NCBI GenBank assembly: GCA_964477025.1 | Contig: CAYZDH010000002.1 | Span: forward strand, 1-43,148 | Length of the DNA: 43,148 bases | Direction of reading: 5' to 3' | From: an uncultured Rhodospirillaceae bacterium | GTDB lineage: Bacteria > Pseudomonadota > Alphaproteobacteria > MPNO01 > UBA2964 | In this document: positions 1,261 to 37,441 of the stretch, piece by piece | Layout of the letters: each line of letters begins with the position of its first letter | Numbering within the stretch: the stretch's first letter is position 1 | Translations under genes and position numbers: made by a program | Notes under the pieces: model-generated | What the model was told of the DNA's origin: nothing | What the model saw: only the letters and a program-made list of their open reading frames with translations | Database searches by the model: none

Positions 1261-1267
1261 TTAGGGT

Positions 1268-3430: not shown

Positions 3431-3446
3431 GTAGTTTGATTAGCCT

Positions 3447-13093: not shown

Positions 13094-13266
13094 TACAGCA
13101 AAAACAAATAGAAAAGAATAAACCCTTACTCAATACATTTAGAAAAATCATAGAAGAAAATTTAAGTTCTGTTTACCGTGGTCGCTCTCCATTGCGCGCC
13201 GCACAATTTTGTCCCACAATTCAAATTAGAAAAAATATAATTATTGAACGGAGAGGGAGTGTTTTC

Positions 13267-13974: not shown

Positions 13975-14028
13975 TAATTTAGAAATTCTAATTAATTCAT
14001 GTTACTATTAGAAACTGTAATATGGGAT

Positions 14029-14841
14029 TTACTTGCCGTGAAATTTTGGTGGCCTTTTTTCTAGCATGCTCGTAACGGCCTCGAGGTGATCATCCGTTGA
14101 ATGGCAAATCGCCTGAATTGACGCGCAGTTATCTAAAAAGTCGGTGAGGTGGGTATTCATTGATTGCCGGAATAGGGTTTTTAACATCCGCGCTGTTATA
14201 GGTGGTCGGGATGCTATTGTTTCGGCGAGTTCCATTGTACGGGTCATGAGCTGATCTGGTTCCACACATTCCAACGCTAGGCCTATCTCAGCTGCCTCCA
14301 CTCCTTCGACAATTCGTCCGGTAAAAGTGAGCTCCGCCGCCCGTTGAAGGCCTACGCGCCTTGGTAAAATCCATGCGCCGCCATCGCCAGGAATTATTCC
14401 AACATTAATGAAAGTTTCCCCAAATTTGGCTTTGGTAGAGCAGATCGTTATGTCGCAATAAAGGGCCAAGTCACATCCCGCTCCAATTGCGGGTCCCTGG
14501 ACCGCTGAAATAGAAGGGATATCGAGTGCGTAAAGGGCCTTCGGAATACGTTGGATGCCTTCAATATACCCGCGCCTGACGCCAGCAGAACCGCCACCAA
14601 AGATTCCCTTTTTTTCTTTCATATCTTTTATATTTCCACCAGCGGAGAAGGCGCTACCTTCCGCCGACATCACTAAAACTCTTGCCTTGGGGTGCACCTG
14701 AACTTTACCTAAGGCATCTAGAATTTCATCAGTAAAATCTCGTTCAGAGTAGGCGTTACGAATATCGTGTCGTGCTAGGATTAAATGGGCGATGCCATTC
14801 TCCAGCGTAAATTTAATATTCTTATATTGGTCTCCCGACAT
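14029..14841 (-). CDS. enoyl-CoA hydratase/isomerase family protein
   Basis: 270 aa with an AGGAGA RBS. It has the crotonase fold motifs SAEGSAFSAGGNIKDM and ISAVQGPAIGAGCDLAL. Confidence 0.85.
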   Translation of the reverse strand: MSGDQYKNIKFTLENGIAHLILARHDIRNAYSERDFTDEILDALGKVQVHPKARVLVMSAEGSAFSAGGNIKDMKEKKGIFGGGSAGVRRGYIEGIQRIPKALYALDIPSISAVQGPAIGAGCDLALYCDITICSTKAKFGETFINVGIIPGDGGAWILPRRVGLQRAAELTFTGRIVEGVEAAEIGLALECVEPDQLMTRTMELAETIASRPPITARMLKTLFRQSMNTHLTDFLDNCASIQAICHSTDDHLEAVTSMLEKRPPKFHGK

Positions 14842-14974
14842 TGAGTTCTCCTGATTAAGCGTTTTAGAAAATTGGGGGGCTAGAAATTCTTTCCGTTAAG
14901 CAAGTGTATAGAAATGGTATACGACTATTTCGCTCACGGTTTCTGAATAAAATGACAGGCGTTAGTATACATAG

Positions 14975-16474
14975 ATGACTGAAAAAAATAAGTCGCCTTT
15001 TTTTGCTGAAAATGGCCACGAGATTCTTACTACTGAACAAATGATTTCAGCAGATACTGAAATGAGTCTTAATGGAACCGCCGGCCATGTTTTGATGGGA
15101 AATGTTGGCCGAGCGGTTGTTGTTGAATTAACTAAAAGATGGCGCACCCAACCCACTAGGGTGCTTTGCGGTCCCGGAAACAATGGTGGAGATGGTTTTG
15201 TCATTGCGAGGCTTCTAAAGGAGAGAGGCTGGCCGGTAAAGCTTTCGCTTTTGGGCAATTTGAATTCACTTTCTGGGGACGCCTTGCGAATGGCAAAACG
15301 TTGGAAAGGAGAGACCGAAGCACTTGATATTTCTTGCCTTAATAATGAAACTCTTATCGTTGACGCCCTATTTGGCGCGGGTCTAACGCGGGAGGTGAAG
15401 GGTCCTGCGGCCGATATTGTTAATGAGATCAACGAGCGCAAACTCACGTGTGTTGCAGTTGATATTCCGAGTGGCGTTGCTGCGAATACAGGTGAAATAT
15501 TAGGTGTCGCACTCCAATGTGAACTAACCGTTACTTTTTTTCGAAAAAAGCCCGGTCATTTACTTTATCCGGGGAGAGGCTTGTGCGGCCAAATTAGCTT
15601 AGTAAATATTGGGATTTCTGAGAAAGTTCTAACGAATATAAAACCCAATACCGCGCAAAATGACCCTAAAATATGGTTGGCTCAATATCCATGGCCTCAA
15701 ATATCTAACCATAAATTTACCCGTGGAAGTGTTTTGATCGCGGCAGGGGCATTAATGACAGGTGCTACACGTTTGGCTGCTCGCGCTGCATCTCGGATCG
15801 GTGCAGGGGTGGTTACGATCGCCGGTTCCGAGGAGGTATCTAATGTATTTGCAGGTGATGACCCAAGTTTTTTAGTTAAAAGTTACGCTGGCGGTAAAGA
15901 ATTCGCCTCTTTATTGAAGGATGAACGTTTAAACACGTTATTGATCGGTCCGGGTGCCGGTATAAATTCCGAAACCGCAGAATTGGTGCTGCAGGCGTTG
16001 AAGACCAATAAGTCTGTCGTTTTAGATGCAGATGCGCTGACCGTTTTTCGGCAACGCCAAGAAGAATTTTTTAAAGCTATAGTGAAATCTAATGTTGTCC
16101 TTACTCCGCACGAAGGGGAATTTTCTCGTTTGTTTGATGTTTCGGGGGATAAGCTTGTAAGATCCCGAAAGGCGGCAGAAAAGAGTGGTGCGGTCGTTTT
16201 ACTTAAGGGACCAGATACAGTTGTTGCGGCACCCGATGGTCGCGCCACAATTAACTGCAATGCCCCTCCTACACTTGCCACCGCAGGGGCTGGAGATGTT
16301 TTAGCCGGATTAATAGCGGGTTTGCTAGCTCAAGGAATGGATCCCTTTTTGGCTGCTTCAGCAGCTTGCTGGGTTCACGGAAAAGCCGCCGTTGAGTATG
16401 GCCCTGGGCTTATCGCGAGTGATTTACCGGAATTTATTCCTAGGGTTTTGAGGGATTTGAAGGGCTACAATTAA
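14975..16474 (+). CDS. nnr: bifunctional NAD(P)H-hydrate repair enzyme (epimerase / ADP-dependent dehydratase)
   Basis: 499 aa. The YjeF N-domain motif is CGPGNNGGDGFV; the carbohydrate-kinase-like C-domain carries GAGDVLAG. Confidence 0.9.
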   Translation: MTEKNKSPFFAENGHEILTTEQMISADTEMSLNGTAGHVLMGNVGRAVVVELTKRWRTQPTRVLCGPGNNGGDGFVIARLLKERGWPVKLSLLGNLNSLSGDALRMAKRWKGETEALDISCLNNETLIVDALFGAGLTREVKGPAADIVNEINERKLTCVAVDIPSGVAANTGEILGVALQCELTVTFFRKKPGHLLYPGRGLCGQISLVNIGISEKVLTNIKPNTAQNDPKIWLAQYPWPQISNHKFTRGSVLIAAGALMTGATRLAARAASRIGAGVVTIAGSEEVSNVFAGDDPSFLVKSYAGGKEFASLLKDERLNTLLIGPGAGINSETAELVLQALKTNKSVVLDADALTVFRQRQEEFFKAIVKSNVVLTPHEGEFSRLFDVSGDKLVRSRKAAEKSGAVVLLKGPDTVVAAPDGRATINCNAPPTLATAGAGDVLAGLIAGLLAQGMDPFLAASAACWVHGKAAVEYGPGLIASDLPEFIPRVLRDLKGYN

Positions 16475-23463: not shown

Positions 23464-23539
23464 GGGCGGTTAGCTCAGCTGGGAGAGCGCCACGTTTACA
23501 CCGTGGATGTCGGCGGTTCGATCCCGTCACCGCCCACCA
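23464..23539 (+). tRNA. tRNA-Val: tRNA-Val, anticodon UAC, CCA encoded
   Basis: The acceptor stem pairs GGGCGGT with ACCGCCC. It has the D arm TAGCTCAGCTGGGAGAGC, the anticodon stem-loop CCACG-TTTACAC-CGTGG and the T arm GGTTCGATCC. Confidence 0.93.
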
Positions 23540-23546
23540 CTTAATT

Positions 23547-23585
23547 AGCTATTGTTTCTAAGACTGCTTAATAACAGTAGCTTTT
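23547..23585 (+). terminator. candidate terminator hairpin after tRNA-Val
   Basis: AGCTATTGTT-16 nt-AACAGTAGCT forms a 10-bp stem (one G-U) followed by TTTT. Confidence 0.4.
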
Positions 23586-23964
23586 GGTTGTAAGCTTTGT
23601 TTCTTCCGTGAATTTTTTAACGCCCGTTTCTGATACTCGAAAAATTTGTAGATAAATTAATTTTTTCTGAGTTTTAAAATTAAAATATTATGGGTGGGCG
23701 TCCTGTAAAAATGGTTCGTTCTGAATTTCAAATCCCATCCCTTTATCTTTTGCGGGTCTGTAAACAATTCAAGCAGGTATATATTGGAGTCCGAGACTGC
23801 TTGAGGGGCCGTGTCTGATCCCGGAAGTAATGAACGTTCTAATCTAAAAACATGGCTTGAGAGTTGACGTCTCACAGAGTTTGTTGACTGGCAAACAAAA
23901 TTAGTATTTTCTCCGCCTCAGAGATTAGATTAACTTCCAAAAACCAAAACGGTCAATTATTCAA

Positions 23965-25323
23965 ATGGCTCAGGACTTCCTTTCATTTATTGAAAAGATT
24001 AAGTCAGAGAGACCTGACGAATTTGTGTCAGTTTCTGATAAAATCGACCCAGCACATTCAATTACTGCAACCGTTGTTAAGACAGAAGAAGAGGCCCGTA
24101 AACGGCCAGTTTTTGTTTTTGAGAATGTCAAGGGAACTGACTTTAAGGTTATGACCAATCTCCACGCTAGCCGACATCGTCTTGGTTTAGCGATGGGGGT
24201 TGGGCCTCGAGAAATGCAAAAACGATTTCTTGATGCCATGGAGAACCCCATTCCCCCTAAGGAGATAAATACTGGACCCTGCAAGGATATAATAATTAAA
24301 GGGAACGATATCGATATGCGGGCCCTGCCCCAAATTGTGCATCATGGGGACGACGGAGGCCCTTACATCACCGCAGCTATTTCATTCGCAAAAGATCCGG
24401 AAACCGGTATTTATAACTGTGCATATAACCGGCTCATGATTACCGGCAAAGACACGACGTCAATTCATCTGACACTGGGTAAGCAGCTGTGGGAATTCCA
24501 TAAGATGGCGGAAGCAAAGGGAGAACCATTACCTGTTGCGTTTGCTATAGGGGTGCATCCGGCAATCGCTTTGGGCGCGTTGTCTATTGGCTCTGTTGAT
24601 GAGGATGAGACGCATATTATGGGTGGGCTCTTTGAAGAACCCCTTGAAATGGTTCCTTGCGAGACCATTGATTTATCTGTTCCCGCTCACGCCGAGCTGG
24701 TTATTGAAGCGGAAATTATGCCTAATGAGTCGGTAGAAGAGGGACCGTTCGGTGAGTTTACCGGGTACAGTTTAGGCGCCCGAGAACGGGAAGTGGTCAA
24801 GGTAAAGGCGATAACTCACCGAAAGGGTGCATATTTTTATGACATGAATGTCGGCCATCTGGATCACATGTTGCTCTCGACAATCCCAATGGAGGCCAAT
24901 CTGTTTCGGGCGGTGAGAACAATGGTGCCCTCCGTAAGGGCAGTTCGTGTGCCTAGCCCCTTCACCTGCTTTGTTTCAATTGAGCAGCGGCTAAAGGGTC
25001 AAGGGAAGAATGCTATAATGGCTGTGTTTGGAGCGGATCTTTACATTAAGCGTGTCGTAGTTGTAGATCATGATGTCGATATTTATGATAATGGCCGAGT
25101 TAACTGGGCTATGGCGACAAGAAGTCAACCAGATCGTGATATCGTTGTTATAAGCAACGCTCGTGGTTCTGATCTTGACCCATCTACTGCCGGAGATGAT
25201 GGCTTCACCTCAAAATGGGGTGTCGATGCAACGGCGAAGCCACTGCTAAGTGAATTCACGCCTCGTCATAATTTTCCAGCAAATGTTTGGGATGCGGTCG
25301 ACGTTAAGTCAATTTTGTCGTGA
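23965..25323 (+). CDS. UbiD-family (prenylated-FMN-dependent) aromatic acid decarboxylase/carboxylase
   Basis: 452 aa containing the family motif EGPFGEFTGY together with ...AYNRLMITGKDTTSIHL... and ...VVVVDHDVDI... No ubiX-like gene is present in the window. Confidence 0.88.
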   Translation: MAQDFLSFIEKIKSERPDEFVSVSDKIDPAHSITATVVKTEEEARKRPVFVFENVKGTDFKVMTNLHASRHRLGLAMGVGPREMQKRFLDAMENPIPPKEINTGPCKDIIIKGNDIDMRALPQIVHHGDDGGPYITAAISFAKDPETGIYNCAYNRLMITGKDTTSIHLTLGKQLWEFHKMAEAKGEPLPVAFAIGVHPAIALGALSIGSVDEDETHIMGGLFEEPLEMVPCETIDLSVPAHAELVIEAEIMPNESVEEGPFGEFTGYSLGAREREVVKVKAITHRKGAYFYDMNVGHLDHMLLSTIPMEANLFRAVRTMVPSVRAVRVPSPFTCFVSIEQRLKGQGKNAIMAVFGADLYIKRVVVVDHDVDIYDNGRVNWAMATRSQPDRDIVVISNARGSDLDPSTAGDDGFTSKWGVDATAKPLLSEFTPRHNFPANVWDAVDVKSILS

Positions 25324-25327
25324 TGGA

Positions 25328-26728
25328 ATGACGGAAAATGTCGCTTATGGTTTCGATTTAGTTGCGGCAGAGAATGCCGATAAATTGGTTCTTATTGGAA
25401 ATGAACGTTCCTTAAGCTGGCGCGAAATAGACCGAAAAGCAGGAGCGGTCGCCTCAAATATTAAAGACGAGGGGCTTTGTCCCGGTGCCAGGTTAGCAAT
25501 ATGTTTTGATGACCCTATTGATACAATTATTGGAGTTTTTGGTGGTCTCAAGGCCGGGTGCGTAATTACCCCATTCAATGGACGTTTGAAATCCAAGGAG
25601 CGCGATCAAGTTTTATCATTACTTGGAAACCCATTCATAGTTGATAGTATCCCCAATGATGAAGTGGCGTTTCCAGCAGTCAATGTCGACCCAGAAGCCC
25701 CGGCTATCATATTGTTTACTTCAGGAAGTACCGGCGTTCCAAAAGGCGCTGTGCTTTCTCATCGTTCGGTAAATGCCGGGCTTGCCATGTGGAGCCATTC
25801 CGCACTTGCTCTTAAATCTGATGACATCGTTATTTCTGCTTTGCCACTTGCGCATTCCTATGGGCTTTTTGGAACCGTTATGGCACCTCTGCTGAAGGGT
25901 GCGAGTAGCGTTTTAGTCCCGCGGTTCGGTGTTGAGGAAGTAATCCGCGCTATTGTGGATAATCAGGCAACAATTTTTTGTGGTGTGGCCACAATGTTTC
26001 GACGAATTTTAGATTCCGAGCATTGTATTCCCGAGTTACTTTCTAGTCTTCGCTTTACGACGAGTGGTGCAGCGCCATGTCCCTGGGAGCTTGTGGAAGC
26101 CTGGCGAAAGAAGACTGGATTAAAAATTGTTCGTGGTTACGGAATGAGCGAACTCTTTCGGCCAGTCTGTTACACGCCGAATGATGATATTGAAACACCA
26201 GATGCCGTTGGGCATGCCGCAAAGGGTGTCAGGCTAAAGATTGTTGATGCCGACGGAAAGGAACTTGATGTTAAACAGGCTGGTGAACTGTGGATCAAAA
26301 CAGAATCCTGTATGACCGGTTACTTGAATTCCATTGAAGAAACAAATGCTGTTATGGAACGCGGGTGGTTTAAGACCGGAGATCTCGCCACGATAAGTCC
26401 CGAAGGGTTAGTGAGTATAGTCGGGCGCAAGAAAGAAGTTATTCTGCGTGGGGGGTATACAGTCTCAGCGGGTGAAGTTGAAGCTGTATTAAATTCTCAT
26501 CCCGAAGTTATTGAAGCGGCTGTAGTCCCGATGCCTGACAGTGATTTGGGTGAAGAAATTTGTGCCTTTGTTGTGTTAAAATCTTCGTCGGATTGTCTGG
26601 AACAGGATGTAATTGATTTTTGCAAGCTGCATATGGCTTCATATAAATATCCACGTAACGTTAATTTTATTCCAGAGTTACCGAAAGGGCCGACAGGAAA
26701 AGTAGAGAAAGCTAGGTTAATGCCCTGA
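25328..26728 (+). CDS. AMP-forming acyl/aryl-CoA ligase (adenylate-forming superfamily, short ~466-aa type)
   Basis: I chose the internal ATG (Met27), 4 nt after the UbiD stop. It has the AMP-binding motif FTSGSTGVPKGA, plus GYGMSE, KTGD and the C-terminal PKGPTGKV. Confidence 0.85.
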   Translation: MTENVAYGFDLVAAENADKLVLIGNERSLSWREIDRKAGAVASNIKDEGLCPGARLAICFDDPIDTIIGVFGGLKAGCVITPFNGRLKSKERDQVLSLLGNPFIVDSIPNDEVAFPAVNVDPEAPAIILFTSGSTGVPKGAVLSHRSVNAGLAMWSHSALALKSDDIVISALPLAHSYGLFGTVMAPLLKGASSVLVPRFGVEEVIRAIVDNQATIFCGVATMFRRILDSEHCIPELLSSLRFTTSGAAPCPWELVEAWRKKTGLKIVRGYGMSELFRPVCYTPNDDIETPDAVGHAAKGVRLKIVDADGKELDVKQAGELWIKTESCMTGYLNSIEETNAVMERGWFKTGDLATISPEGLVSIVGRKKEVILRGGYTVSAGEVEAVLNSHPEVIEAAVVPMPDSDLGEEICAFVVLKSSSDCLEQDVIDFCKLHMASYKYPRNVNFIPELPKGPTGKVEKARLMP

Positions 26729-26780
26729 AGTTTTAATTTATCCCTCCCTAAATCTTCCCTTTTCTTGAGAATTTATAACT

Positions 26781-27908
26781 ATGAAAATTAAAAACGTTCA
26801 AGCGACACCCCTGAAAATCCCTGTAAATTTTGAAGATCTGGGGGTTGATCACAAAAGCTTTAATAATGTGACTCACGTGGAGGTAGAGACAGATAACGGC
26901 TTATTGGGTTATGGATTAACGTCTATTACCCAATCTCGTCCGGTAGCCGAAGTTATTAACTCTGTGCTAGGTCCAGCTATAATTGGAATGGATCCAACCC
27001 TTCACGAACGTGTCTGGGATAGATTATATTGGACAGCTACACCATGGGGCCAGTCTGGCTACGCATCACATGCCATAAGCGCGATAGATTTGGCGCTTTG
27101 GGATATTAAAGGCAGACAACAGAATTTACCGGTTTGGAGGCTCCTCGGCGGAGCACATACGAATATACCAATTTATGCGACCTGTGGTTTTTCATTTATG
27201 TCAAATAGTGAAGTGATCGAGGTTGTGGGACGTGTGATTGAAAAAGGTTTTACGGGGGTTAAATTACAAGTCGGGAGGCCTGGCCTCGACTACAAGGGTA
27301 AGTCTCCAAGCCTAAACCAATTAATTAAAGATGATATTAAGAGGGTCAGAGATATAAGAGAAGCAGTCGGACCGGCTGTTGAAATTGCGGTGGATGCGGC
27401 TTGTCGCCTTGATTACGTTAGCGCGCTTAAGTTGTGTGAAGGACTTAAAGACCTAAATATAAGCTTCTTTGAAGAGCCAATAGCACAAAACGATGTAAAT
27501 TTGTTGGCGAAGTTAAGACAAAAGACTTCTATCCCTCTTTCCGCGGGGCAAAATGAAGGATTGTCCTATCGGTTTCGAGATTTTCTAGTGTCGCAGGCCG
27601 TTGATGTAATTCAGCCTAATTTAATTATAACGGGTGGAGTTACACAGTGCCTAAGGATCGCTGGGATGGCTTCTGCGTTTAATGTGCTAATTTCAAATGG
27701 CGGCGGTGCCCCATTACATAATGGTCATTTTCAGGCTGGGGTGACGAATGGTACAGCGGTCGAATATCAATACAATGCTGTTGCCGCCTGTGACGTTCTG
27801 TATGGCGTTAAACCAGTGCACGAAAATGGATGTATGGTATTAGGTGAGGACCCGGGATTTGGACTGCAGCCAAAGGAAGAAGTTATAAAATACGCTGCAG
27901 ACCTATAA
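26781..27908 (+). CDS. enolase-superfamily enzyme (mandelate racemase / muconate lactonizing enzyme family)
   Basis: 375 aa. It has the capping-domain motif AISAIDLALWDIKGR and the barrel motifs VDAACRLD, FFEEPI, AGQNEG and VDVIQPNLIITGG. Confidence 0.85.
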   Translation: MKIKNVQATPLKIPVNFEDLGVDHKSFNNVTHVEVETDNGLLGYGLTSITQSRPVAEVINSVLGPAIIGMDPTLHERVWDRLYWTATPWGQSGYASHAISAIDLALWDIKGRQQNLPVWRLLGGAHTNIPIYATCGFSFMSNSEVIEVVGRVIEKGFTGVKLQVGRPGLDYKGKSPSLNQLIKDDIKRVRDIREAVGPAVEIAVDAACRLDYVSALKLCEGLKDLNISFFEEPIAQNDVNLLAKLRQKTSIPLSAGQNEGLSYRFRDFLVSQAVDVIQPNLIITGGVTQCLRIAGMASAFNVLISNGGGAPLHNGHFQAGVTNGTAVEYQYNAVAACDVLYGVKPVHENGCMVLGEDPGFGLQPKEEVIKYAADL

Positions 27909-27942
27909 ATTTTAACTGGGGTGTCCTTCCGGCCTGTTTTTA

Positions 27943-28746
27943 TTAGTCCGTAACACCCAAGAAAACATTATCAAGGTCAGAAAGAAAATGTTTTGCGTAT
28001 GGTGCGGATTGAGTGAGCATCTCTAATCTTGCCTTCCCCTCAGGGCCAACGCCAACTCCCGGGGGGGTTAAATTCTGGTTTCGTTCAACCATGGCGGTAT
28101 AACTTTCTTTGAATTTCTCAATGCTTTCTACTTTGAAGACAAAGTGATCTGGTCCGGAACGAGAAATTCCAGTGTTTGCATACTTAGTGATATCCCATGG
28201 GGCCAATACGACGGTCATATGGCCGTCACTGACATAATAATTTTCGTCGCCTTCTTCTCGGTTGCCCATATTTAGGCCTAAAATATCACAATAAAATTCG
28301 GCACATTTTTCAGGGTTTAAAGTTCTAATTGCAAAGTGAGTAATTTGACGGTCTTGCGTCCATTCGCCGTCGGTATAGACGTCTTTTTTATTATTCTTGT
28401 CGGCATGAGATAAATCAAAAATATTACCATCCGGGTCATGAGTTGTAATTCCTGCAAATGGCCTGTTGCTGGGTCTTTTGAGGGCTTTTACCTTAGGAAA
28501 TTTTCTAGCCATACGGTCCAAAATGTCTCCAACATCATCCACCTCTACGCCGAAGTGATCTAACCCTCCCGGGCGTCCGGGACGTCTTGGATTGATATTT
28601 AAACCTACGTAGCCGTCTCCAACAGTGACGGCGCTTTCCGGACGTGACCTGGCTGCTGTTTTCATCCCAAATAAGACTTCATAAAACTTCCCCAACATAG
28701 CGTATTGGGTAGACATCATGGCTACGTGATTGATTTTTGTACTCAT
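27943..28746 (-). CDS. two-domain VOC (glyoxalase / extradiol dioxygenase) family protein
   Basis: I chose the ATG (Met11) 5 nt after GGAGA. Two beta-alpha-beta-beta-beta modules begin INHVAM... and ITHFAIRT..., each with a DHF motif (LDHFGVEV, PDHFVFKV). Confidence 0.8.
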   Translation of the reverse strand: MSTKINHVAMMSTQYAMLGKFYEVLFGMKTAARSRPESAVTVGDGYVGLNINPRRPGRPGGLDHFGVEVDDVGDILDRMARKFPKVKALKRPSNRPFAGITTHDPDGNIFDLSHADKNNKKDVYTDGEWTQDRQITHFAIRTLNPEKCAEFYCDILGLNMGNREEGDENYYVSDGHMTVVLAPWDITKYANTGISRSGPDHFVFKVESIEKFKESYTAMVERNQNLTPPGVGVGPEGKARLEMLTQSAPYAKHFLSDLDNVFLGVTD

Positions 28747-28877
28747 TAGGGTCTCCAAATTCTTATGAAAAAGCACACATTTTTTTTGCGTAAATTTAAA
28801 AATAGGTTAGGCTTCAATTAAATAAAAATCTAGAAAGATTTGTAAAAAAGAAATTTTCTAAAACAGGGGGAATAAAA

Positions 28878-30179
28878 GTGTATAGGAAACGATTAAAGTT
28901 ACTTCTTTGCGTTTTAATGGGCGTGGCCTTTTCGATAACAGGGGGCGGGAATACATCCGAGGCAGGTCCTAACTTTAAAGGTAAGAGGGTTCAGTTGATT
29001 ATTGCGTCCAGTCCCGGCGGTGGAACTGACAGGATAGGACGCCTTTTATCTTCATATATGGAGAAAATTTTAGAGGGTAATCCAACTATTGTTATAAAAA
29101 ACATGGGGTCCGGTGGAGGAAAAATAAGGGCGGCGAATTACCTGATGAAAAAGGCAAAACCCGACGGCCTGACCTTTATGCAAAGTGATACGACCGTCGT
29201 TTCGCCAACCACGTTAAGGCGTAAATCGGCGAGATACGACCCCACCAAATTTGAATTTATTGGTTCACTTAACCGTGGCGGAAGCATCTTTTTTATCAAT
29301 AAAAAAGCGCATAAGCGATTGTTGGATAAGTCTAAGAAACCTGTCATCGTTGCCGCTATATCCGGAACCCGTAATTGGCAGGCCATTCCGCTCTGGGGCG
29401 CTGAGTTTCTTGGCTGGAATGTTCGATGGATCCCTGGTTATCGTGGTGTCGGCCAGATGAGCAAGGCTCTCCGTCAGGGTGAGATTGATATGTTTGCAAC
29501 AAACAATGCATTCACAATCAAGCAGCTTCAAGACGATGGGGTTATAAAGCTGATTTCTCAAGTAGGGCAGGTTCTTGGCGGAAAGATATCGCGGAGGCTT
29601 TCATATAAAGACGTTCCTGTTTTTACCGAGATGCTGGAAAGTTCCGGAAAGAAAAAAATTCCTCTACTTGCTATGCAGGGGTACAGTTCGCTGACTACCC
29701 CATCTCAGGTGGACAAGTGGATGGGGATGCCGCCTGGGACTCCAAAAAGCTACTTGAAGGCTTTTCGTGAGGCTTACAAGTCGTCAGTTAACGATCCTGC
29801 TTTCTTGAAAATTGCGCGCAAACAATTTAGCAAGGAGATCAACTACATTGACGGGCAGACGGTTGCCAAGCTTGTCGCCGCGGTTCATAGAGCTCCCACT
29901 GAGGCCGTTGATTATGCGGAAGAGTTAAAGCAGAAATATGGTCTGACGGCGTTTAAGAACAAAGTTTATGTTTTTAAAGGTAAAATAACGAAGATAAAGA
30001 AAAAAGGTAAAAGCCTTAAATTTAAAGGTGGTGGCAAGAAGGGTAAGTTAAAGGTAGGGAAAAAGACCAAAATTAAAATCGGCGGAAAAACAGCTAAACG
30101 TAAAATGCTAAAAGTGGGTATGAGCTGTACCTTCAAGACAAAAGGCATCAAAAAAGCGACAAAGATCGACTGTAAATAG
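28878..30179 (+). CDS. TctC/Bug-family periplasmic binding protein of a tripartite tricarboxylate transporter, with a ~66-aa poly-Lys C-terminal module
   Basis: GTG start with a signal peptide. The core aligns by eye with TctC (IIASSPGGGTDRIGR, KNMGSGGG, KPDGLT, IPGYRG..Q...AL..GEIDM, MPPGTP). The tail is described in the findings. Confidence 0.8.
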   Translation: MYRKRLKLLLCVLMGVAFSITGGGNTSEAGPNFKGKRVQLIIASSPGGGTDRIGRLLSSYMEKILEGNPTIVIKNMGSGGGKIRAANYLMKKAKPDGLTFMQSDTTVVSPTTLRRKSARYDPTKFEFIGSLNRGGSIFFINKKAHKRLLDKSKKPVIVAAISGTRNWQAIPLWGAEFLGWNVRWIPGYRGVGQMSKALRQGEIDMFATNNAFTIKQLQDDGVIKLISQVGQVLGGKISRRLSYKDVPVFTEMLESSGKKKIPLLAMQGYSSLTTPSQVDKWMGMPPGTPKSYLKAFREAYKSSVNDPAFLKIARKQFSKEINYIDGQTVAKLVAAVHRAPTEAVDYAEELKQKYGLTAFKNKVYVFKGKITKIKKKGKSLKFKGGGKKGKLKVGKKTKIKIGGKTAKRKMLKVGMSCTFKTKGIKKATKIDCK

Positions 30180-30246
30180 ATAAAACCTATAACTACTGGT
30201 TGAGCGCCCGGCGAATTACATACTCGTCGGGCCTTCAAAATGATCC

Positions 30247-32229
30247 ATGATTGATGCTCTACTAATCGGAATTTCTGAAATCTTGAAACCTTGGCCATTG
30301 ACGCTGATGGCTTTAGGTATCCTTGGAAGTTCCTTCTTTGCTGCTCTCCCCGGTATTGGCGTCTTACTTTTGATCACGATCGTCTTGCCGTTTGCCATCA
30401 CGTTAGACCCCTATGCAGCGATAGCATTTCTTTTGGGAATTGGAGCAGTATCAAATACCGCCAACACCTTTCCCTCTGTCTTAATCGCTGTGCCCGGCAG
30501 TGCGGGTTCGCAGGCGACAATCGTCGATGGTTTCCCTATGGCTCAAAAGGGGGAGGCTAAGAGGGCGTTTGGCGCGGCATTTGTTGCGTCGCCCCTAGGC
30601 GGTATTTTTGGAGCTGCAGTGTTGCTTTTGAGTTTGCCTATTTTAAAGCCATTGGTTCTAAGTTTTGGCTCACCAGAGTTTCTAATGTTGGTTATTTGGG
30701 GTTTGAGTGCCGTGGGTGTGTTGAGTGGCACTGCCCCCATAAAGGGATTAATCGCTGCAATTATTGGTGTTTTCATTTCAACTATTGGGATGGATAACAA
30801 AACTGGCGGCGAAAGATTTTCTTTTGAAGGCGAGTACCTTGTTGATGGGATAAGCTTAATTTTAGTCGGTTTAGGCCTTTTTGCTGTTCCCGAAATGATC
30901 GCTTTAGCGAGAAGGCGTACGTCCATAGCTGAAACCGAAGGGTTAGGGCATGGGCTACTTGAGGGAATAAAAGATGTATTTCGTAACAAGTGGCTTGCAA
31001 TAAGATGCTCCGTGATAGGCGTATGGGTTGGCGTTTTGCCTGGTTTAGGTGCATCTGTTGCTGACTGGTTCGCCTATGCCCACGCGGTGCAAACTGAGAA
31101 AAACCCAGAAAAATTCGGCAAGGGGGATGTAAGAGGCGTAATTGCACCAGAGAGCGCAAATAATGCAAAGGAAGGTGGCGCGTTAATCCCGACAATTGCC
31201 TTTGGTATTCCCGGTTCAACCTCTCTCGCCCTTATTTTAATTGCTTTTATCTCGGTTGGTATTACTCCGGGTTCGGCCATGCTAACGGATCAACTGCCAT
31301 ACACTATGGCAATGATTTTTGTATTGGTTATCGCCAATATTTTCGCGGCGGGGCTGGCAATTGGGGCAGCGGGCCAATTTGCCAAATTAAGCTTAATGCC
31401 ATTTTATATCATTGTGCCTATGACATTGGTGCTATGCGTTTCCGCCGCCTACGCCGCCCATTTTGTGTGGTGGGATATTTTAACGTTTTTAGTATTTTCT
31501 GTGCTTGGCTACGTTATGAAGGTTTTGGATTGGCCGCGGCCTCCTCTTCTGGTGGCTGTTGTGCTGGGTGGTCAGCTAGAAACCTACCTTTGGCTTTCTA
31601 ATGCACGATATGGATGGGAATGGCTCACAGGGCCTGGCGTGATTGCTATCCTAATTCTAATCATACTGACGCTACTAATGCCTTTAATCCGAAGTATGAG
31701 GCAAAAGAAAAGTGCACCAGCTAGCGTTGATGGAGATGTGGTTCTCTCAAAAACTGATCGATTGTGGGATATTGGGTTTTTAATATTTGTGGGGTGCCTT
31801 TTAACGGCGGCGGCATACGTTAGCACCGACTGGGTGTTAAGAGGTGCCTTGGTAATTTATTTCCTCGCAGGGTTAGGGGTTCCCCTGGGTATCTTGCAGA
31901 TTTTGTTGCATTGGCGCTGGATAACTTCCTTCCATGCTAAAAATGATAAGCCAGTAATCACTGAGAGTTCTAAAGAGGGCGTAGTAAGGTCATTGCAGGC
32001 ATTTGCATGGTTATTTGCTCTTGCCGCCGGTGTGTGGTTCGTTGGGTTTCATATTGCTGCGGGTGCATTTGTTGTTCTTTTTATTAGGCATTACAAAGGT
32101 AAATGGATAGAGGCGCTAGTTATATTCGCTTTGTCAGAAATTTTTGTTGTCGCCGTATTCGATATTCTTTTAAATGTTTTCTGGCCTACACCCGCGTTAT
32201 TTGAACTTTTTGGTTTAACGTGGCTTTAA
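30247..32229 (+). CDS. TctA-family large permease fused to a C-terminal TctB-like four-helix domain
   Basis: 660 aa. Residues 1 to ~488 have the TctA pattern and length. Residues ~489-660 (nt ~31711-32226) add about four further hydrophobic helices. No separate tctB gene is present in the locus. Confidence 0.8.
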   Translation: MIDALLIGISEILKPWPLTLMALGILGSSFFAALPGIGVLLLITIVLPFAITLDPYAAIAFLLGIGAVSNTANTFPSVLIAVPGSAGSQATIVDGFPMAQKGEAKRAFGAAFVASPLGGIFGAAVLLLSLPILKPLVLSFGSPEFLMLVIWGLSAVGVLSGTAPIKGLIAAIIGVFISTIGMDNKTGGERFSFEGEYLVDGISLILVGLGLFAVPEMIALARRRTSIAETEGLGHGLLEGIKDVFRNKWLAIRCSVIGVWVGVLPGLGASVADWFAYAHAVQTEKNPEKFGKGDVRGVIAPESANNAKEGGALIPTIAFGIPGSTSLALILIAFISVGITPGSAMLTDQLPYTMAMIFVLVIANIFAAGLAIGAAGQFAKLSLMPFYIIVPMTLVLCVSAAYAAHFVWWDILTFLVFSVLGYVMKVLDWPRPPLLVAVVLGGQLETYLWLSNARYGWEWLTGPGVIAILILIILTLLMPLIRSMRQKKSAPASVDGDVVLSKTDRLWDIGFLIFVGCLLTAAAYVSTDWVLRGALVIYFLAGLGVPLGILQILLHWRWITSFHAKNDKPVITESSKEGVVRSLQAFAWLFALAAGVWFVGFHIAAGAFVVLFIRHYKGKWIEALVIFALSEIFVVAVFDILLNVFWPTPALFELFGLTWL

Positions 32230-32322
32230 CTTTTTAGTTGGTGTCACTTGACCATCAAAATCAGCGTGTAATACTTCCTTTTAAATACCAATAAAAAATT
32301 AAGGGGTATAGGGAGGGCTGAG

Positions 32323-33621
32323 ATGCAGACAATCAAATATGTTCTTTGTTTGGGACTATTTTCATTATTTCTTTTTAATTCCAAAGGCAGCTTCGCCGAG
32401 GCGCAAAGTTTAAAAAGCTTTTATAAAGGAAAAACCCTAACAGTTATGATTGGGTATGGTGCGGGCGGTGGATATGACATGTATTCCCGGACACTTGCTC
32501 GTTTTATTTCTAAACATATCCCTGGGAACCCTAAAGTCGTCGGTAAAAATATGCCGGGTGCTGGCTCCTTAAAGCTTGCTAACTGGATGTACTCAGTTGC
32601 CCCTAAAAATGGAACTGTTTTTGCGACTATAGCGCGTGGTGCGCCGGTGCATTCTCTTTTAGGTGGAAAGGGAGCACGTTTCGATGCTACCAAATTTAAT
32701 TGGCTTGGTAGTATGAATAACGAAGTTAGTGTTTGCGCTACAACCTTTAGGGCCCCTGCTAAAACTTTTGCGGATCTCCAGAAAAATGAAACTATAATCG
32801 GGGGCGGGGGAAAAAGCTCTGATAACGAAGTTTTTGCTATGTTTGTTCAAAACCTCCTCGGTGCAAAGTTTAAGTTAATATCTGGCTACCCGGGAATGAA
32901 GGTTATGTTCTTGGCTATGCAGCGCGGTGAAATTGACGGCGTGTGTGGATGGAGTTGGACTGGTGTAAAAAAACAAAAAGTGGCTGTAGATTGGTACAAT
33001 GCAAATAAATTGAATGTTGTGCTTCAATTCGCACTACAAAAACACCCAGAATAGCCAAAAGTCCCTTTAATCACTGATTTTGCAAAAACGGCAAGCGAGA
33101 AAGCTCAAATGGAGCTGATCTTTTCCAGGCAGACTATGGGTCGTCCTTATCTTTTTCCTCCGGGAGTAAAGCGGGAACGTGTGGAAATGATGCGGAAGGC
33201 ATTCATTGCAACTATGAAGGATCCAAATTTTAACGCTTTTGCTAAGCGAACTAAGATGGAAGTTAATTACGTTTCGGGCAGCGATGTTCAAATGTTGGTT
33301 AATAGAGTTTTGAACACGCCCAAAGAAACGGTGATGGCGGCAATATCAAACACTAGACACCGAGGAAAAATTGAGAAAGTAAAACTTAATTACGTAAAGG
33401 CTACCGGGATTGTCGTTGGAGTAAAAAAGAAAGGGCGGAAGCTCGTACTTAAAGTTAACGGTAAGAAAGTTAAAACAAAGGTCTCTGGTAAAAGGAGTAA
33501 GGTCTTAGTTAATGGGAAAAAGGTTAAAAGAGGGGCAGTTAAGAACGGCATGCGTTGTGAGTTGACTTGGCTTGGGTCTGGAACGGAGTCAAAAAAGGTT
33601 GATTGTCAAACCTCTAAATAG
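32323..33621 (+). pseudogene. second TctC/Bug-family binding protein gene, interrupted by a single in-frame TAG (33052-33054); same poly-Lys C-terminal module
   Basis: ORFs 32323..33054 and 33109..33621 are in the same frame. Translation reads ...LQKHPE*PKVPLITDFAKT..., which is continuous with the TctC alignment of the paralogue (..RRLSYKDVPVFTEM..). There are no other disruptions. Confidence 0.65.
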
Positions 33622-33702
33622 CTCGAAATGGTTAACCAATTCGGGATGCTCGAGCTAATAGATACCGGGAAGAGTTAGATAGTATTTTAAAAGGAAACCA
33701 GT

Positions 33703-35289
33703 GTGTTTGATCCAATTTCAAGTACAGAGGACGCTGAGCTTTATAGAGAAAAATTTGATGAAATTTTTGATGTTATTGTTGTCGGCTATGGGTTTGGTGG
33801 CGCGGTAGCCGCTATAGAAGCAGCTGATAATGGCGCTAAAGTGTTGTTATGTGAGAAAATGCCTCAGCCCGGAGGTGTGTCAATTTGTTCTGGAGGAGCG
33901 GTCAGGTGTGCTGAAGATGCGGATGACGCATTTAAATATTTAAAAGCGACAAATTCCGGTACTACGCCTGATGATGTTTTGAGGGTTCTAGCCGAGGGTA
34001 TGACTGAGGCTGAGGATTATGTAAAAAAGTTAATTGAGACGGTGGAGGGTGTTTCAATAAAAGATACGGAATTCTCCGGAAAAAGGGGGGGGAACTACCC
34101 GTTTCCTGGTTGGGAGACATTTTATCATACTCAGGTTGAGGTTCCGGACTCCTTCGACCGTTTGAAATACTTCCCGCACGTGCGAACTAGGCCGAGTTCT
34201 GGTGGTCCAGGGATGTTTTGGGTCTTGGACCACAATATTAAGGCCAGAAATATAACTGTTAAAGTTAACTCCCCTGTCAATAAACTTATCAAAAATAGCG
34301 ATGGAGAAGTTTGCGGATTAGCTATCTCTGTAAATGATAAAGATATGCGGGTGGGGTCGAGGCAGGGGGTTATCCTGGCATGCGGGGGTTTTGAGTATAA
34401 TGAAGAGATGAAATCCCAATACTGGGAGGGAAAGCCTGTTTTGACAGCATCTTCTAGAGGGAACACGGGAGACGGGATAAGGATGGCCCAATCAATGGGG
34501 GCGGACCTTTGGCACATGTGGCATTTTCATGGTTGTTACGCCTTTAAACATCCGGATCCAAAATTTCCATTTGCACTCCGTGTAAAAAGACTACCGGACT
34601 GGAATCCACTAAATAAAGATGAGGCAGATGTGAAAATGGTTTGGGTCGTTCTTGACCAGCTTGGCCGGCGTTATATGAACGAGTGCCCACCATATGCTCA
34701 AGATACATCCCACCGTCCTATGCATTTTATGGATAGTGAAACAATGAGTTATCCAAGAAATCCATCTTGGTTAATTACGGATCAAAATGGCTCTTCGACA
34801 TATCAAATTGGGGATATCCGCACTAATGATCCCGAGTATACCTATGACTGGAGTGAGGACAATTCGCAGGAATTACGATTAGGAATTTTAAAGGAAGCAA
34901 ATTCAATTGATACCCTGGCTGATCAGTTAGAGGTGGATCGTAAGGTTCTAAATTCAACAATAGATCGATGGAACGAACTCTGTGATTTGGGGGAAGATTT
35001 AGATTTCAAAAGACCACCGGGTACTATGGCGAAAATCGATACCCCACCTTTTATTTATGGCAAAGTTTGGCCGGCGGTATCAAACACGCAAGGTGGGCCT
35101 GTGCACAACGCAAAGCAACAAATTTTAAATACCGCAGGTGACCCGATCCCCAGGTTGTATGCTTCTGGCGAACTGGGCAGCAGTTTCGGTCATCTTTACC
35201 TGTCTGGTGGAAATATTGCTGAGTGTTTTGTGACCGGCTGGATTTCTGGCCGTGAGGTGTCTTCTCTTCAACCGCTAGATAATCTATAG
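33703..35289 (+). CDS. FAD-binding flavoprotein of the fumarate reductase / 3-ketosteroid dehydrogenase type
   Basis: GTG start. It has the N-terminal motif DVIVVGYGFGGAVAAIEAADNGAKVLLCEK and the C-terminal motif LYASGELGSSFGHLYLSGGNIAECFVTG. Confidence 0.85.
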   Translation: MFDPISSTEDAELYREKFDEIFDVIVVGYGFGGAVAAIEAADNGAKVLLCEKMPQPGGVSICSGGAVRCAEDADDAFKYLKATNSGTTPDDVLRVLAEGMTEAEDYVKKLIETVEGVSIKDTEFSGKRGGNYPFPGWETFYHTQVEVPDSFDRLKYFPHVRTRPSSGGPGMFWVLDHNIKARNITVKVNSPVNKLIKNSDGEVCGLAISVNDKDMRVGSRQGVILACGGFEYNEEMKSQYWEGKPVLTASSRGNTGDGIRMAQSMGADLWHMWHFHGCYAFKHPDPKFPFALRVKRLPDWNPLNKDEADVKMVWVVLDQLGRRYMNECPPYAQDTSHRPMHFMDSETMSYPRNPSWLITDQNGSSTYQIGDIRTNDPEYTYDWSEDNSQELRLGILKEANSIDTLADQLEVDRKVLNSTIDRWNELCDLGEDLDFKRPPGTMAKIDTPPFIYGKVWPAVSNTQGGPVHNAKQQILNTAGDPIPRLYASGELGSSFGHLYLSGGNIAECFVTGWISGREVSSLQPLDNL

Positions 35290-35844: not shown

Positions 35845-35921
35845 GGGGGTGTAGCTCAGCTGGTTAGAGCGCTGGCCTGTCACGCCAGAGGTCGCGGGTT
35901 CGAGTCCCGTCACTCCCGCCA
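35845..35921 (+). tRNA. tRNA-Asp: tRNA-Asp, anticodon GUC, CCA encoded
   Basis: The acceptor stem pairs GGGGGTG with CACTCCC. It has the D arm TAGCTCAGCTGGTTAGAGC, the anticodon stem-loop CTGGC-CTGTCAC-GCCAG and the T arm GGTTCGAGTCC. Confidence 0.93.
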
Positions 35922-35971: not shown

Positions 35972-37096
35972 TTAGTTTCCCGCCCGAATTTTTTCTTCAT
36001 TAAAAATATCCCCCATTTCTGATCTAATTCCTTTGGACTCGATATCGTCCAGCCACATCTTGTGAATTTGTGGCATCTGGTTTTCGTATTCGATTTGAGC
36101 GCCCCCATCCTCGACCGATTTGTCTACATTACCACTCCAAATTTCTTTTTTAGCCCAGGTCATAGGATAGCGTACCGTTCCGAATTGTAACGCTAGGTAT
36201 CGAGATGGTGTTCTTCCGGTATTAAAGTGCTGATGGAACATCTGTTCCGGTGGTGTCACGACAACGCCGTGATCCCAGTCAACTCGGACGAGATCATCTT
36301 CTTCGCCTTCATACCATAGGAGAGAGTAGCCTTCCCCATCTATGGTGAAGACATTAGTACCACACATATGCCTATGTGCCTTTTTGTAGGTGCCGGTTAT
36401 AATTTGCGAGGTGTGACAGCCAATCGTGCCGTCTGATAAAATCCAGCGTAAGCTGGAAGATCCCTTTCCTCGCGCCGCCCAATCTTTGAGTTCAAAATTA
36501 GTAATGTCAGCTACAAAATTAGTTTCCCATTGATGGCTTCCGGGCCGCATTTCGATCATCTCCCCTTCACCCGTGAAGTAGCCGTTTGGCCCTAATCTTT
36601 CGGGAAAGGTCATGGGGTTGTTGAAAATGAAATCCTCGTTTCTGAATAGATTGATTAGGAATGAGAAATTGTGAACGGTTGCGAACCGAGCCGGTTCCTG
36701 CCCGGAACCGTTAAAATGTTGATATTTGGAGTTTACAGGGACAGCGAAGAGTGAATTTCTTCCCCATTCGAAGCTATGTTTCTGACCGTCAGGAGTTTCT
36801 ATAGTTGTGGACCCGCTACCCTCAATTATGTAGACCACTTCCTCATAAATGTGCTGCATCTGGTTTGAACTACTGCCGGGGGGTAATTCAAAGCAAAATA
36901 TCGAATTAAAGTCGTCGCGGCCCTTAAGTAAGCAGACTGCGCCATGCATGCCATATCGATCCCAAGGGGCAACATCAATCTTCATGAGATTGATTCCGAA
37001 ATCTTCGTGGACAGGGACGGGCTCCTTGTCGCACCAGTCGAGAAAGTTGTCGTGTAAGAATACGCGTGTTTGATTGTTAACAGCTTCGTCTGCCAT
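35972..37096 (-). CDS. bicupin protein, dioxygenase-like; function unknown
   Basis: I chose the ATG (Met6) 7 nt after GGAGGA. There are two cupin barrels. The C-terminal one has G.....HRH...N......G plus P.E...HQHFN. In the N-terminal one the first His is replaced (MQH). Confidence 0.7.
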   Translation of the reverse strand: MADEAVNNQTRVFLHDNFLDWCDKEPVPVHEDFGINLMKIDVAPWDRYGMHGAVCLLKGRDDFNSIFCFELPPGSSSNQMQHIYEEVVYIIEGSGSTTIETPDGQKHSFEWGRNSLFAVPVNSKYQHFNGSGQEPARFATVHNFSFLINLFRNEDFIFNNPMTFPERLGPNGYFTGEGEMIEMRPGSHQWETNFVADITNFELKDWAARGKGSSSLRWILSDGTIGCHTSQIITGTYKKAHRHMCGTNVFTIDGEGYSLLWYEGEEDDLVRVDWDHGVVVTPPEQMFHQHFNTGRTPSRYLALQFGTVRYPMTWAKKEIWSGNVDKSVEDGGAQIEYENQMPQIHKMWLDDIESKGIRSEMGDIFNEEKIRAGN

Positions 37097-37441
37097 CAAG
37101 CTTTCCTCCAAATTTATTCCTTATTATAGGCAATGTACGAACCTCCGATTGCGGGGTCAAATCCTCTGGGAAGAGGCTTAAAACTTTGAGCTAATATTCA
37201 GGCTAGAGGGGTTTGATCTTAATGGAAATTACTCGTATAAAATGATCAACTTTTGATTTGTAAGAGGGCACGCTAGAGGAAATTTCTGTATAACCTTGTG
37301 CGAAGGATTCATTAATGGTTATTAGAGATATCGATGGTAAAGCGTAAAACGTAAAAGGTTCTTTGGGTTGCTTTTAAGTAAAGTTTTGAGAGTTAGGGCG
37401 GTGCTTATTCCAAGTTCCGGTTTTATTAGGTAAGAGGTCCA

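Follow-up and report, generated by a model that had tools for sequence, protein, structure and literature searches.

A UbiD-family gene and a short acyl-CoA ligase gene form a conserved two-gene module beside variable cargo in a marine alphaproteobacterial lineage

We analysed a stretch of 43,148 nucleotides from an uncultured Rhodospirillaceae bacterium (assembly GCA_964477025.1, contig CAYZDH010000002.1; GC content ~45%), hereafter the window, in which three co-directional open reading frames (ORFs) on the plus strand encode a UbiD-family (de)carboxylase of the prenylated flavin mononucleotide (prFMN) type, a short acyl-CoA ligase of the ANL superfamily and an enolase-superfamily enzyme. Our main finding is that the first two make up a module of their own, which belongs to a new and uncharacterised UbiD subfamily of wide distribution, and that the genes behind them are unrelated or loosely related cargo. 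The TGA of the UbiD gene (23965..25323, 452 aa; Pfam UbiD_N, UbiD and UbiD_C, and TIGR00148) is followed after 4 nt by the in-frame ATG of the translationally coupled ligase gene (25328..26728, 466 aa; Pfam AMP-binding and AMP-binding_C), and the enolase-superfamily gene (26781..27908, 375 aa; mandelate-racemase (MR)-subgroup-like; Pfam MR_MLE_N and MR_MLE_C) starts 52 nt past the ligase stop. A preliminary description of the region had given these ORFs, coordinates and gaps correctly and had read the three genes as one operon. The latter does not hold: the enolase gene is missing from nearly all of the 82 loci surveyed, or ~95% of the loci with the pair, and in two close relatives (L006 and L012) the ligase gene is followed by a tRNA-Asp gene. 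The enolase gene and the VOC and tripartite tricarboxylate transport (TTT) genes next to it should not be read into the same conserved operon.

The survey covered 80 loci taken from species-representative genomes, plus the contigs of single homologues, and was based on tblastn and a per-locus codon-usage gene caller. Where at least 700 nt of sequence was available downstream of the UbiD gene, the locus was considered testable, and in 68 of these 74 loci a co-directional ligase gene follows the UbiD gene immediately, the median gap being ~7 nt; in two further loci, the ligase is found 2-5.5 kb from the UbiD gene. The relation holds in the opposite direction, too, and a 452-aa UbiD gene was found upstream of three out of three ligase homologues with ~50% identity. 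The preliminary description had paired the UbiD with a dedicated CoA-ligase-type enzyme, which these counts bear out, and had proposed a neighbourhood survey of the three-gene set, in which the pair turned out to be conserved and the triple not co-conserved. The pair occurs in Alphaproteobacteria (marine Rhodospirillales and Defluviicoccus-like), Methylomirabilota/Rokubacteria, Binatia, Verrucomicrobiia, Acidobacteria and Limnocylindria, and the genomes carrying it are without exception metagenome-assembled genomes (MAGs). A relative of the UbiD is present in 224 of 185,579 species representatives; PLSDB contains no match above 60% identity, the best ones being HmfF-type genes at 33-40%. Cluster look-ups for members of the subfamily returned no informative names, and full-text searches of the literature turned up no study of this UbiD-ligase pair or of a cluster that combines UbiD and enolase-superfamily genes.

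The other neighbours of the pair are far more variable. The next commonest are molybdenum (Mo) hydroxylases of the CoxL/quinoline-oxidoreductase type (19 loci) and a PRK08327 thiamine pyrophosphate (TPP) enzyme (17 loci), followed by small VOC proteins (~15), Amidohydro_2 (~11), TAXI-TRAP (11) and TctA (7). These families, as well as glutathione S-transferases (GST), recur in a lineage-wise manner, and given that none is universal and all are uncharacterised (PRK08327, PRK07475), the substrate cannot be deduced from the neighbours. A flavin prenyltransferase gene, ubiX, is found within 10 kb in one of 85 related loci (L037), and a tblastn search with E. coli UbiX came back blank for the window, as the preliminary description had it. 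In Rokubacteria and some Rhodospirillaceae (L049-L053, L058, L063, L064 and L071-L076), the pair closes a longer co-directional cluster consisting of a PRK07475 Asp/Glu-racemase-like gene, TAXI-TRAP genes, the PRK08327 TPP enzyme, sometimes a 2-hydroxyacid dehydrogenase, Amidohydro_2, UbiD and ligase, with a second UbiD added in some cases; none of the families in this cluster has been characterised. In Defluviicoccus-like alphaproteobacteria and one 'Deltaproteobacteria' MAG (L001, L024-L035, L057 and L089-L091), a one-domain VOC gene (~150 aa) lies directly 5' of the UbiD gene on the same strand, and GST genes recur near the pair in L010, L013, L014, L039, L090 and L091.

The 452-aa UbiD, here called UbiD452, exceeds the gathering thresholds of PF20695, PF01977 and PF20696 and scores 326.2 bits on TIGR00148 (cut-off 244.85), and reaches no functional equivalog of NCBIfam. 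Its best match in the PDB is PtHmfF, the 2,5-furandicarboxylate (FDCA) decarboxylase of P. thermopropionicum (6H6V/6H6X; 303 bits, 42% identity over 394 residues), followed by AnInD (172 bits), AroY (168), VdcC (163), E. coli UbiD (~136), Fdc1 (128) and phthaloyl-CoA decarboxylase (62). In line with the preliminary description, the protein is HmfF-like and not the housekeeping enzyme of ubiquinone biosynthesis, the model of which (4-hydroxy-3-polyprenylbenzoate decarboxylase, NF008175) it matches with 149 bits against a cut-off of 788. Because members from different phyla are at least 63% identical, whereas a library clustered at 50% identity holds no full-length outsider closer than 41-44%, we consider UbiD452 a discrete subfamily. 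Within the marine clade, it is about as conserved as the Lon protease encoded upstream (90% vs 90-91% identity, and 82-83% vs 83-87%), and the ligase drifts faster than UbiD452 (70%, then 52-63%). Only a handful of UbiD enzymes have been characterised (PMC8988006).

The catalytic machinery of UbiD452 appears complete. The E(D)-R-E network described for the family (PMC8988006) is represented by E259, R156 and E264, and these residues, together with the cofactor or metal ligands N151, H198 and E244, match PtHmfF and are invariant in 16 family members. Similarly, H301 is invariant in the subfamily and occupies the position of the HmfF H296/H297, a histidine key to furan-type specificity (PMC7976604). 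The three genuine HmfFs that we compared (P. thermopropionicum, G. kaustophilus pHTA426 and the hmfFG-hmfABCDE cluster of Cupriavidus oxalaticus) share an arginine in the motif 'IPREA' and a four-residue 'CRYH' loop; in UbiD452, the former (R304 of PtHmfF) is replaced by M309, which is nearly invariant in the subfamily, and the loop that carries the latter's arginine (R331) is deleted. Further active-site motifs are changed as well, and the HmfF motif 'EFPKYY' reads 'EFTGYSLG'. The arginine pair of PtHmfF, R304 and R331, reportedly holds the distal carboxylate of FDCA. Its loss together with that of the loop could equally mean a monocarboxylate substrate, a second carboxylate held in a different manner or room for a CoA ester.

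The ligase is a regular member of its superfamily (PF00501 227.9 bits, PF13193 72.6 bits), and the core motifs A3, A5, A7, A8 and A10 can be read intact in the translation (TSGSTGVPKG, YGMSE, TGD, GRKKE and PKGPTGK). The nearest structure is the malonyl-CoA ligase MatB (3NYQ; 209 bits, residues 17-463). The protein stays under every NCBIfam cut-off and is 24% identical to the ligase from the C. oxalaticus hmf cluster and likewise to the one from the G. kaustophilus plasmid; the acceptor of the activated acid would be CoA rather than another thiol or an amine. The names that the source databases give to its homologues, such as 'long-chain acyl-CoA synthetase', are generic, and JGI labels some members of the UbiD subfamily '2,5-furandicarboxylate decarboxylase 1'. 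For this pair, neither 'FDCA decarboxylase' nor 'long-chain acyl-CoA synthetase' is a supported label.

An upstream alignment of the window with L006-L008, L012, L010, L013 and L014 reveals a promoter-/operator-like block on the plus strand, GTTTGTTGACT..CAAAC..AAATTAGTATTTT (23879..23911), ~55-85 nt 5' of the UbiD ATG, and its conservation amid diverged flanks suggests that the UbiD-ligase module has a promoter or operator of its own. The block was not called by a simple sigma-70 scan. In the Rfam search upstream of UbiD, tRNAs alone reached the gathering threshold and everything else was sub-threshold noise with E-values up to 1, so that a riboswitch or another known RNA family 5' of UbiD is ruled out at that threshold. 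The module is transcribed in situ: assemblies of marine metatranscriptomes contain low-depth contigs over UbiD, the ligase and the enolase-VOC region, and the UbiD-ligase junction is bridged by two of them, X25 (25255-25508) and X26 (25173-25344). No RNA contig from the eight metatranscriptomes covers the ligase-enolase junction (26728-26781), a result that is uninformative about co-transcription. A consensus scan found no terminator-like site between ligase and enolase and one after the enolase gene, a hairpin on the plus strand at 27916..27932 between the convergent enolase and VOC genes; with no such hairpin in between, read-through from the ligase into the enolase gene is possible in this genome. 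Between tRNA-Val and the upstream element, the window has ~340 nt of extra AT-rich spacer (23540-23878), the total distance in relatives being ~110-160 nt; two RNA contigs (X31 and X32) lie on the spacer, and it has no Rfam match.

The left flank of the inserted region consists of tig, clpP, clpX, lon and hupB, followed by tRNA-Val(TAC) (23464..23539, plus strand; ARAGORN and Rfam), which precedes the UbiD gene also in L006-L019; the right flank starts with tRNA-Asp(GTC) (35845..35921, plus strand; ARAGORN) and continues with a bicupin gene and nuoA-F. Marine alphaproteobacterial/Rhodospirillales MAGs are the nearest relatives, and at least 14 of them have the UbiD-ligase pair at this very site. 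The exact order tRNA-Val, UbiD, ligase, tRNA-Asp, free of cargo, is seen in L006, L012, L016 and L019, and in L006 and L012, which are 90%-identical relatives, the ligase gene and the tRNA-Asp directly 3' of it are ~80 nt apart. In metagenome runs X1-X3, on the other hand, tRNA-Val is joined straight to tRNA-Asp (23539->35845), skipping 12.3 kb. These joints probably come from other taxa of the same samples that have the two tRNA genes side by side, and because of such organisms, we consider the whole 12.3-kb block an insertion between two tRNA genes, with these genes marking its left and right edges. A second joint, seen in X2 and X3, leads from within the ligase gene (26164) to 35667, with 8 extra letters, and may stem from a variant that lacks the cargo or has a deletion, or else from a faulty assembly. 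The gene arrangement itself is real and no assembly artefact, as promoter, UbiD, ligase and enolase are found together on DNA contigs of four independent marine metagenomes (e.g. X1, 23834-27532) and a JGI contig (L098) shows the same order with 98-100% protein identity over UbiD, ligase, enolase and VOC.

Within the inserted block, the content of the ligase/tRNA-Asp slot varies: some genomes have nothing there, and others have GST/VOC/ferritin/metallo-beta-lactamase (MBL) genes, TauD/rhodanese genes, a gene for a Sel1 protein or Mo-hydroxylase genes; in the window, the slot holds the enolase, a VOC gene, two TctC-like genes, TctA/B and a FAD_binding_2 flavoprotein. The enolase gene is the first of this cargo and adjoins the ligase in the lineage of the window only (the window, L098 and L099), and in L010, L039 and L100 four other genes part the two. 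The constant partner of the enolase is the two-domain VOC protein of the glyoxalase/dioxygenase fold, encoded convergently (27943..28746, minus strand; Pfam Glyoxalase and Glyoxalase_6), the ATG start of which is backed by alignment with an orthologue. The VOC protein accompanies every enolase of at least 65% identity and is itself 66-98% identical, ranging from 66% to the VOC of L092, convergent with the enolase orthologue there, to 89-98% in L098-L100. Long TctC-like proteins are likewise encoded near more distant enolase homologues (L097 and L123), and the enolase thus travels with VOC and TctC-type binding proteins as a separate, movable module.

The enolase also recurs beside another UbiD. 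In the MAG of the cargo-less L006 and on four other contigs, the enolase-VOC genes lie 9 nt downstream of a UbiD paralogue of 504 aa, UbiD504 (L092, 4478-7932; also L101-L104 and L129), with 65-69% identity for the enolase and 66-68% for the convergent VOC. UbiD504 is 28% identical to the UbiD of the window and has 7PDA as its best PDB match. In L037, the sole locus with a nearby ubiX, a distant MR/MLE gene immediately precedes the pair. Enolase homologues of at most 64% identity occur in unrelated contexts; one of these, a Paraburkholderia locus in which a homologue (51%) accompanies genes for an FMN-dependent dehydrogenase, a TPP enzyme, MFS and LysR, can be read as mandelate-pathway-like. 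The enolase protein itself (PF13378 153.6 bits, PF02746 63.5 bits) stays far under the cut-off of every functional NCBIfam model. Its metal ligands D205, E231 and E259 are invariant, as are K161, Q163, N306 and H316; the KxK motif reads K161-L-Q163, with a glutamine in place of its second lysine, and Asn306/Gly307 align with the strand-7 histidine of 3BJS/2QQ6, so that a strand-7 histidine is missing and H316 is found further on.

The rest of the cargo looks like a transport system and an oxidoreductase. A TTT system and a convergent two-domain VOC protein next door had been noted in the preliminary description, and the Pfam matches agree. The former comprises a long TctC-like periplasmic binding protein (28878..30179, plus strand, 433 aa; Pfam TctC 33.5 bits, cut-off 27; orthologues in L010, L039 and L100) and the large membrane subunit TctA (30247..32229, plus strand, 660 aa; Pfam TctA 389.5 bits), the C-terminal part of which resembles TctB below the cut-off (20.5 bits vs 29.1); membership thus stands on TctA and the TctC-like protein. 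The second long TctC-like gene (32323..33621, plus strand) appears as two ORFs of 243 and 170 aa without Pfam matches, which together make one gene of 433 codons with an in-frame TAG at 33052-33054; its read-through translation aligns over the full length with the first binding protein and with the intact orthologue in L099. That orthologue (92% identical) has a leucine at the TAG position and contigs from three metagenomes have a T at 33053, giving a TTG codon, from which we conclude that the TAG is either a strain-specific nonsense mutation or a sequence error. Both TctC-like proteins are ~100 aa longer than the 274-position Pfam model, and the second has a lysine-rich C-terminal extension of ~90 aa that is seen in the L097 homologue, too. 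The last cargo gene encodes a FAD_binding_2 flavoprotein oxidoreductase (33703..35289, plus strand, 528 aa; Pfam 132 bits) with NCBIfam matches to KstD, flavocytochrome c and TcuA-like models, every one under its cut-off.

Two regions outside the inserted block deserve a mention. Between tRNA-Asp and nuoA, a 379-aa bicupin is encoded on the minus strand (35972-37111), the only NCBIfam match of which is a weak one to 5-aminosalicylate 1,2-dioxygenase; genomes of the marine clade keep it in this place (78-94% identity), and it was seen in no other surveyed locus. On the opposite side, 5' of tig, the genes at 244-16474 read like a set for N-heterocycle or amide catabolism and include ornithine-cyclodeaminase-like, arylmalonate-decarboxylase/maleate-isomerase-like, AtzD/TrzD ring-opening amidohydrolase and TAXI-TRAP genes, as well as enoyl-CoA hydratase, FAD monooxygenase, MFS and isochorismatase-like genes and a Mo subunit of the CoxL/quinoline-oxidoreductase type without adjoining small-subunit genes.

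In our interpretation, which we judge probable on balance, UbiD452 and its dedicated ligase catalyse successive steps on the same small carboxylic acid, unsaturated or heteroaromatic in nature, and the enolase module is separate cargo. The first module (23879-26728) would be a self-contained bicistron, with its own upstream element, of an HmfF-related UbiD and a short ANL ligase, and its net effect would be to release one carboxyl as CO2 and, at the expense of ATP, to join the carboxyl that remains (or the only one) to CoA as a thioester. The order of the two reactions, which we infer like the nature of the substrate, could be either decarboxylase before ligase or the reverse, with the free carboxyl of a mono-CoA ester being removed in the manner of phthaloyl-CoA decarboxylase. 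The prFMN would be supplied in trans by a UbiX encoded elsewhere, and the second module (26781-35289) would be a lineage-specific addition to the ligase/tRNA-Asp slot for the uptake and conversion of another carboxylate. Several observations weigh against this interpretation. The loss of the HmfF arginines, if their role is as reported, argues against a simple dicarboxylate bound in the HmfF style; neither the UbiD subfamily nor the ligase clade has a characterised member and no substrate can be named; acyl-CoA-processing genes near the pair are not consistent. Furthermore, the 52-nt gap without a terminator-like site and a junction that is kept in L099 make a co-transcription or link of ligase and enolase possible in this lineage, and L037 has its distant enolase-superfamily gene directly 5' of the pair. 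The RNA evidence, finally, consists of low-depth contigs in which DNA carry-over is possible.

The same two genes could also work in reverse, as has been proposed for the carboxylases of anaerobic benzene, naphthalene and phenanthrene breakdown and their aryl-CoA ligases. A UbiD that adds CO2 to the C-H of a neutral (hetero)aromatic compound or alkene, with the ligase trapping the acid as a CoA thioester and so pulling the equilibrium, would need just what is observed: obligatory pairing, the order UbiD-then-ligase and translational coupling. The loss of the arginine pair would fit a monocarboxylate product, the coupling of a reversible UbiD to an acid-consuming step has been noted (PMC8988006) and there are precedents for clusters of a UbiD-like carboxylase and a CoA ligase (reviewed in PMC12016498 and PMC11497795). 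Yet we think carboxylation unlikely. The hosts look aerobic, with nuo and oxygenase/hydroxylase genes in the window; the subfamily is nearest to the decarboxylating HmfF and not to the AbcA/Ppc type (133-141 bits on the phenylphosphate carboxylase models), and no candidate neutral substrate is evident. The carboxylate importers TAXI-TRAP and TctA recur near the pair, in agreement with the uptake of a carboxylate, and favour an imported acid over a neutral substrate. A different objection concerns the enolase, which in this lineage might make or consume the substrate of UbiD and ligase, e.g. by dehydration of a hydroxy acid to an alpha,beta-unsaturated or aromatic acid, which a UbiD enzyme would then decarboxylate, with the VOC protein and the TTT system serving the same route. 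To the read-through possibility and the terminator-like hairpin only after the enolase, this three-gene or larger pathway can add a ligase-enolase junction kept in L098 as well as L099, the enolase-VOC pair downstream of UbiD504, the MR/MLE gene in L037, the mandelate-like set of Paraburkholderia and the TPP enzymes and 2-hydroxyacid dehydrogenases that recur beside the pair in Rokubacteria. The recurrence with UbiD504 speaks in favour of the preliminary description, and a functional enolase-UbiD link may exist. Such a pathway is nevertheless quite unlikely when nearly all loci with the pair, including those of 90%-identical relatives, do without the enolase, when four unrelated genes separate it from the ligase in L010 and L039 and when its more distant homologues sit in unrelated surroundings; enolase-superfamily genes are common in these taxa and some chance co-occurrence is expected, and the ligase-enolase junction is not bridged by any RNA contig.

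The two textbook readings of the pair fare worse. An orthodox furan pathway, with HmfF decarboxylating FDCA and the 2-furoyl-CoA synthetase HmfD activating the product, could build on HmfF as the closest characterised relative, on the JGI label of some members, on the retained histidine and on the CoxL-type Mo hydroxylases that recur nearby, but we consider it very unlikely: UbiD452 is 36-42% identical to the three genuine HmfFs, with the IPREA arginine changed to methionine and the CRYH loop deleted, the ligase is as distant from the HmfD homologues as stated above, hmfG/ubiX, hmfH, hmfB and hmfE are missing and HmfA-like matches are at 30-34% identity. A housekeeping ubiquinone UbiD is, for practical purposes, refuted, and a quinone pathway of the MenE/MenC kind can be given hardly any credence either. 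The conserved position that the preliminary description had associated with a housekeeping gene is indeed found, being syntenic from lon-hupB to nuo in the same 14 or more MAGs with a conservation comparable to that of Lon, but the score on the ubiquinone model is far too low, the relatives are confined to so few species representatives and the pair is placed between tRNAs that are directly adjacent in other organisms, marking an insertion. The decarboxylation step of ubiquinone synthesis, moreover, does not involve a CoA ligase. The bicistron might even be a portable device for C-H carboxylation or carboxyl editing in aerobic marine and soil bacteria, in which a reversible prFMN step on a heteroaromatic or acrylic scaffold is locked by the co-evolved ligase through thioester formation; in addition, a dehydratase/isomerase of the enolase superfamily, atypical in lacking the usual Lys/His bases, would feed UbiD452 and UbiD504 in a dehydrate-then-decarboxylate logic. 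We offer this as a speculation that is unlikely to be right. A precedent for such a logic is the archaeal anhydromevalonate-phosphate route.

Returning to consecutive action on a small carboxylic acid, the UbiD452 subfamily is of interest for being unusually conserved, for its presence in several hard-to-culture phyla and for coming with an ATP-dependent ligase of its own. Should the pair turn out to be a couple of decarboxylase and ligase or of carboxylase and ligase, it would provide a new entry of aromatic or unsaturated acids into CoA-dependent catabolism, with relevance for the carbon turnover of ocean and soil, and a ready-made, co-evolved pair with which to drive CO2 fixation by prFMN enzymes, a task that until now has relied on artificial coupling.

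Among known systems, the closest is that of HmfF. The UbiD fold, the similarly short length (448-452 aa), the catalytic Glu-Arg-Glu and the H296/H297-equivalent histidine are shared, and in the bona fide hmf cluster (L088), too, an ANL CoA ligase acts on the decarboxylated product. However, the pair in the window is without adjoining UbiX/HmfG and HmfABCE, and the ligase is an immediate, coupled neighbour here and lies beyond hmfABC in hmf clusters. A tblastn search with the proteins of L088 found no hmf orthologues in the window or the 85 loci, and in comparison with L088 and the G. kaustophilus plasmid locus (L087), an hmf locus is ruled out by the residues, the ligase identity and the missing partner genes. 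The phthaloyl- and isophthaloyl-CoA decarboxylases resemble the pair in combining a UbiD-family decarboxylase with a CoA ligase or transferase that activates the acid, so that a mono-CoA ester loses its free carboxyl to become an aryl-CoA, and differ in being the weakest of the UbiD structures matched (8OZ5/8PMK; 61.7 bits, E 5e-16), so far from the similarity of orthologues that this identity is ruled out. In phthaloyl-CoA systems, a UbiX-like gene is found nearby and the hosts are anaerobes. The preliminary description had drawn on both analogies, and they are the right ones to think with, though the locus is neither an hmf nor a phthalate system. Its doubts about the likeness to MenE/MenC were justified: the scores remain under the cut-offs for menE (TIGR01923; 224.8 vs 330.15) and for o-succinylbenzoate synthase (NF002782, 42.5 vs 288; TIGR01928, 24.9 vs 200.65), and the window has no men genes. 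Subunit C of VdcC/BsdC is rejected with 283.5 bits against 650 (NF041204) and the lack of a B (UbiX-type) gene, the D subunit not having been specifically searched for, and MqnL-type enzymes, phenylphosphate carboxylase and BagN are rejected with NCBIfam equivalogs far under their cut-offs.

For the ligase, MatB (3NYQ and 4FUT) is comparable as the nearest solved structure and a relatively short ANL enzyme, but the malonyl-CoA synthase model of NCBIfam gives 293 bits against 558 and the mat genes are absent. The enolase shares the two-domain MR_MLE architecture, the three acidic ligands and the first lysine, K161, with MR-subgroup enzymes such as acid-sugar dehydratases, the 3,6-anhydro-L-galactonate cycloisomerase 5XD9 and the proteins of unknown function 3TJ4 and 3BJS, and differs from them by Gln163 in place of the second lysine of KxK and Asn306 in place of the strand-7 histidine; the mandelate racemase of P. 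putida was not among the matches listed. A parallel in terms of gene pairing comes from the UbiD-like carboxylases with which anaerobes degrade benzene, naphthalene and phenanthrene and which are encoded together with an ATP-dependent CoA ligase that consumes the UbiD-made acid. While those enzymes belong to other UbiD clades, are multi-subunit and come from strict anaerobes, the counterpart here is a single protein of 452 aa in apparently aerobic marine and soil lineages.

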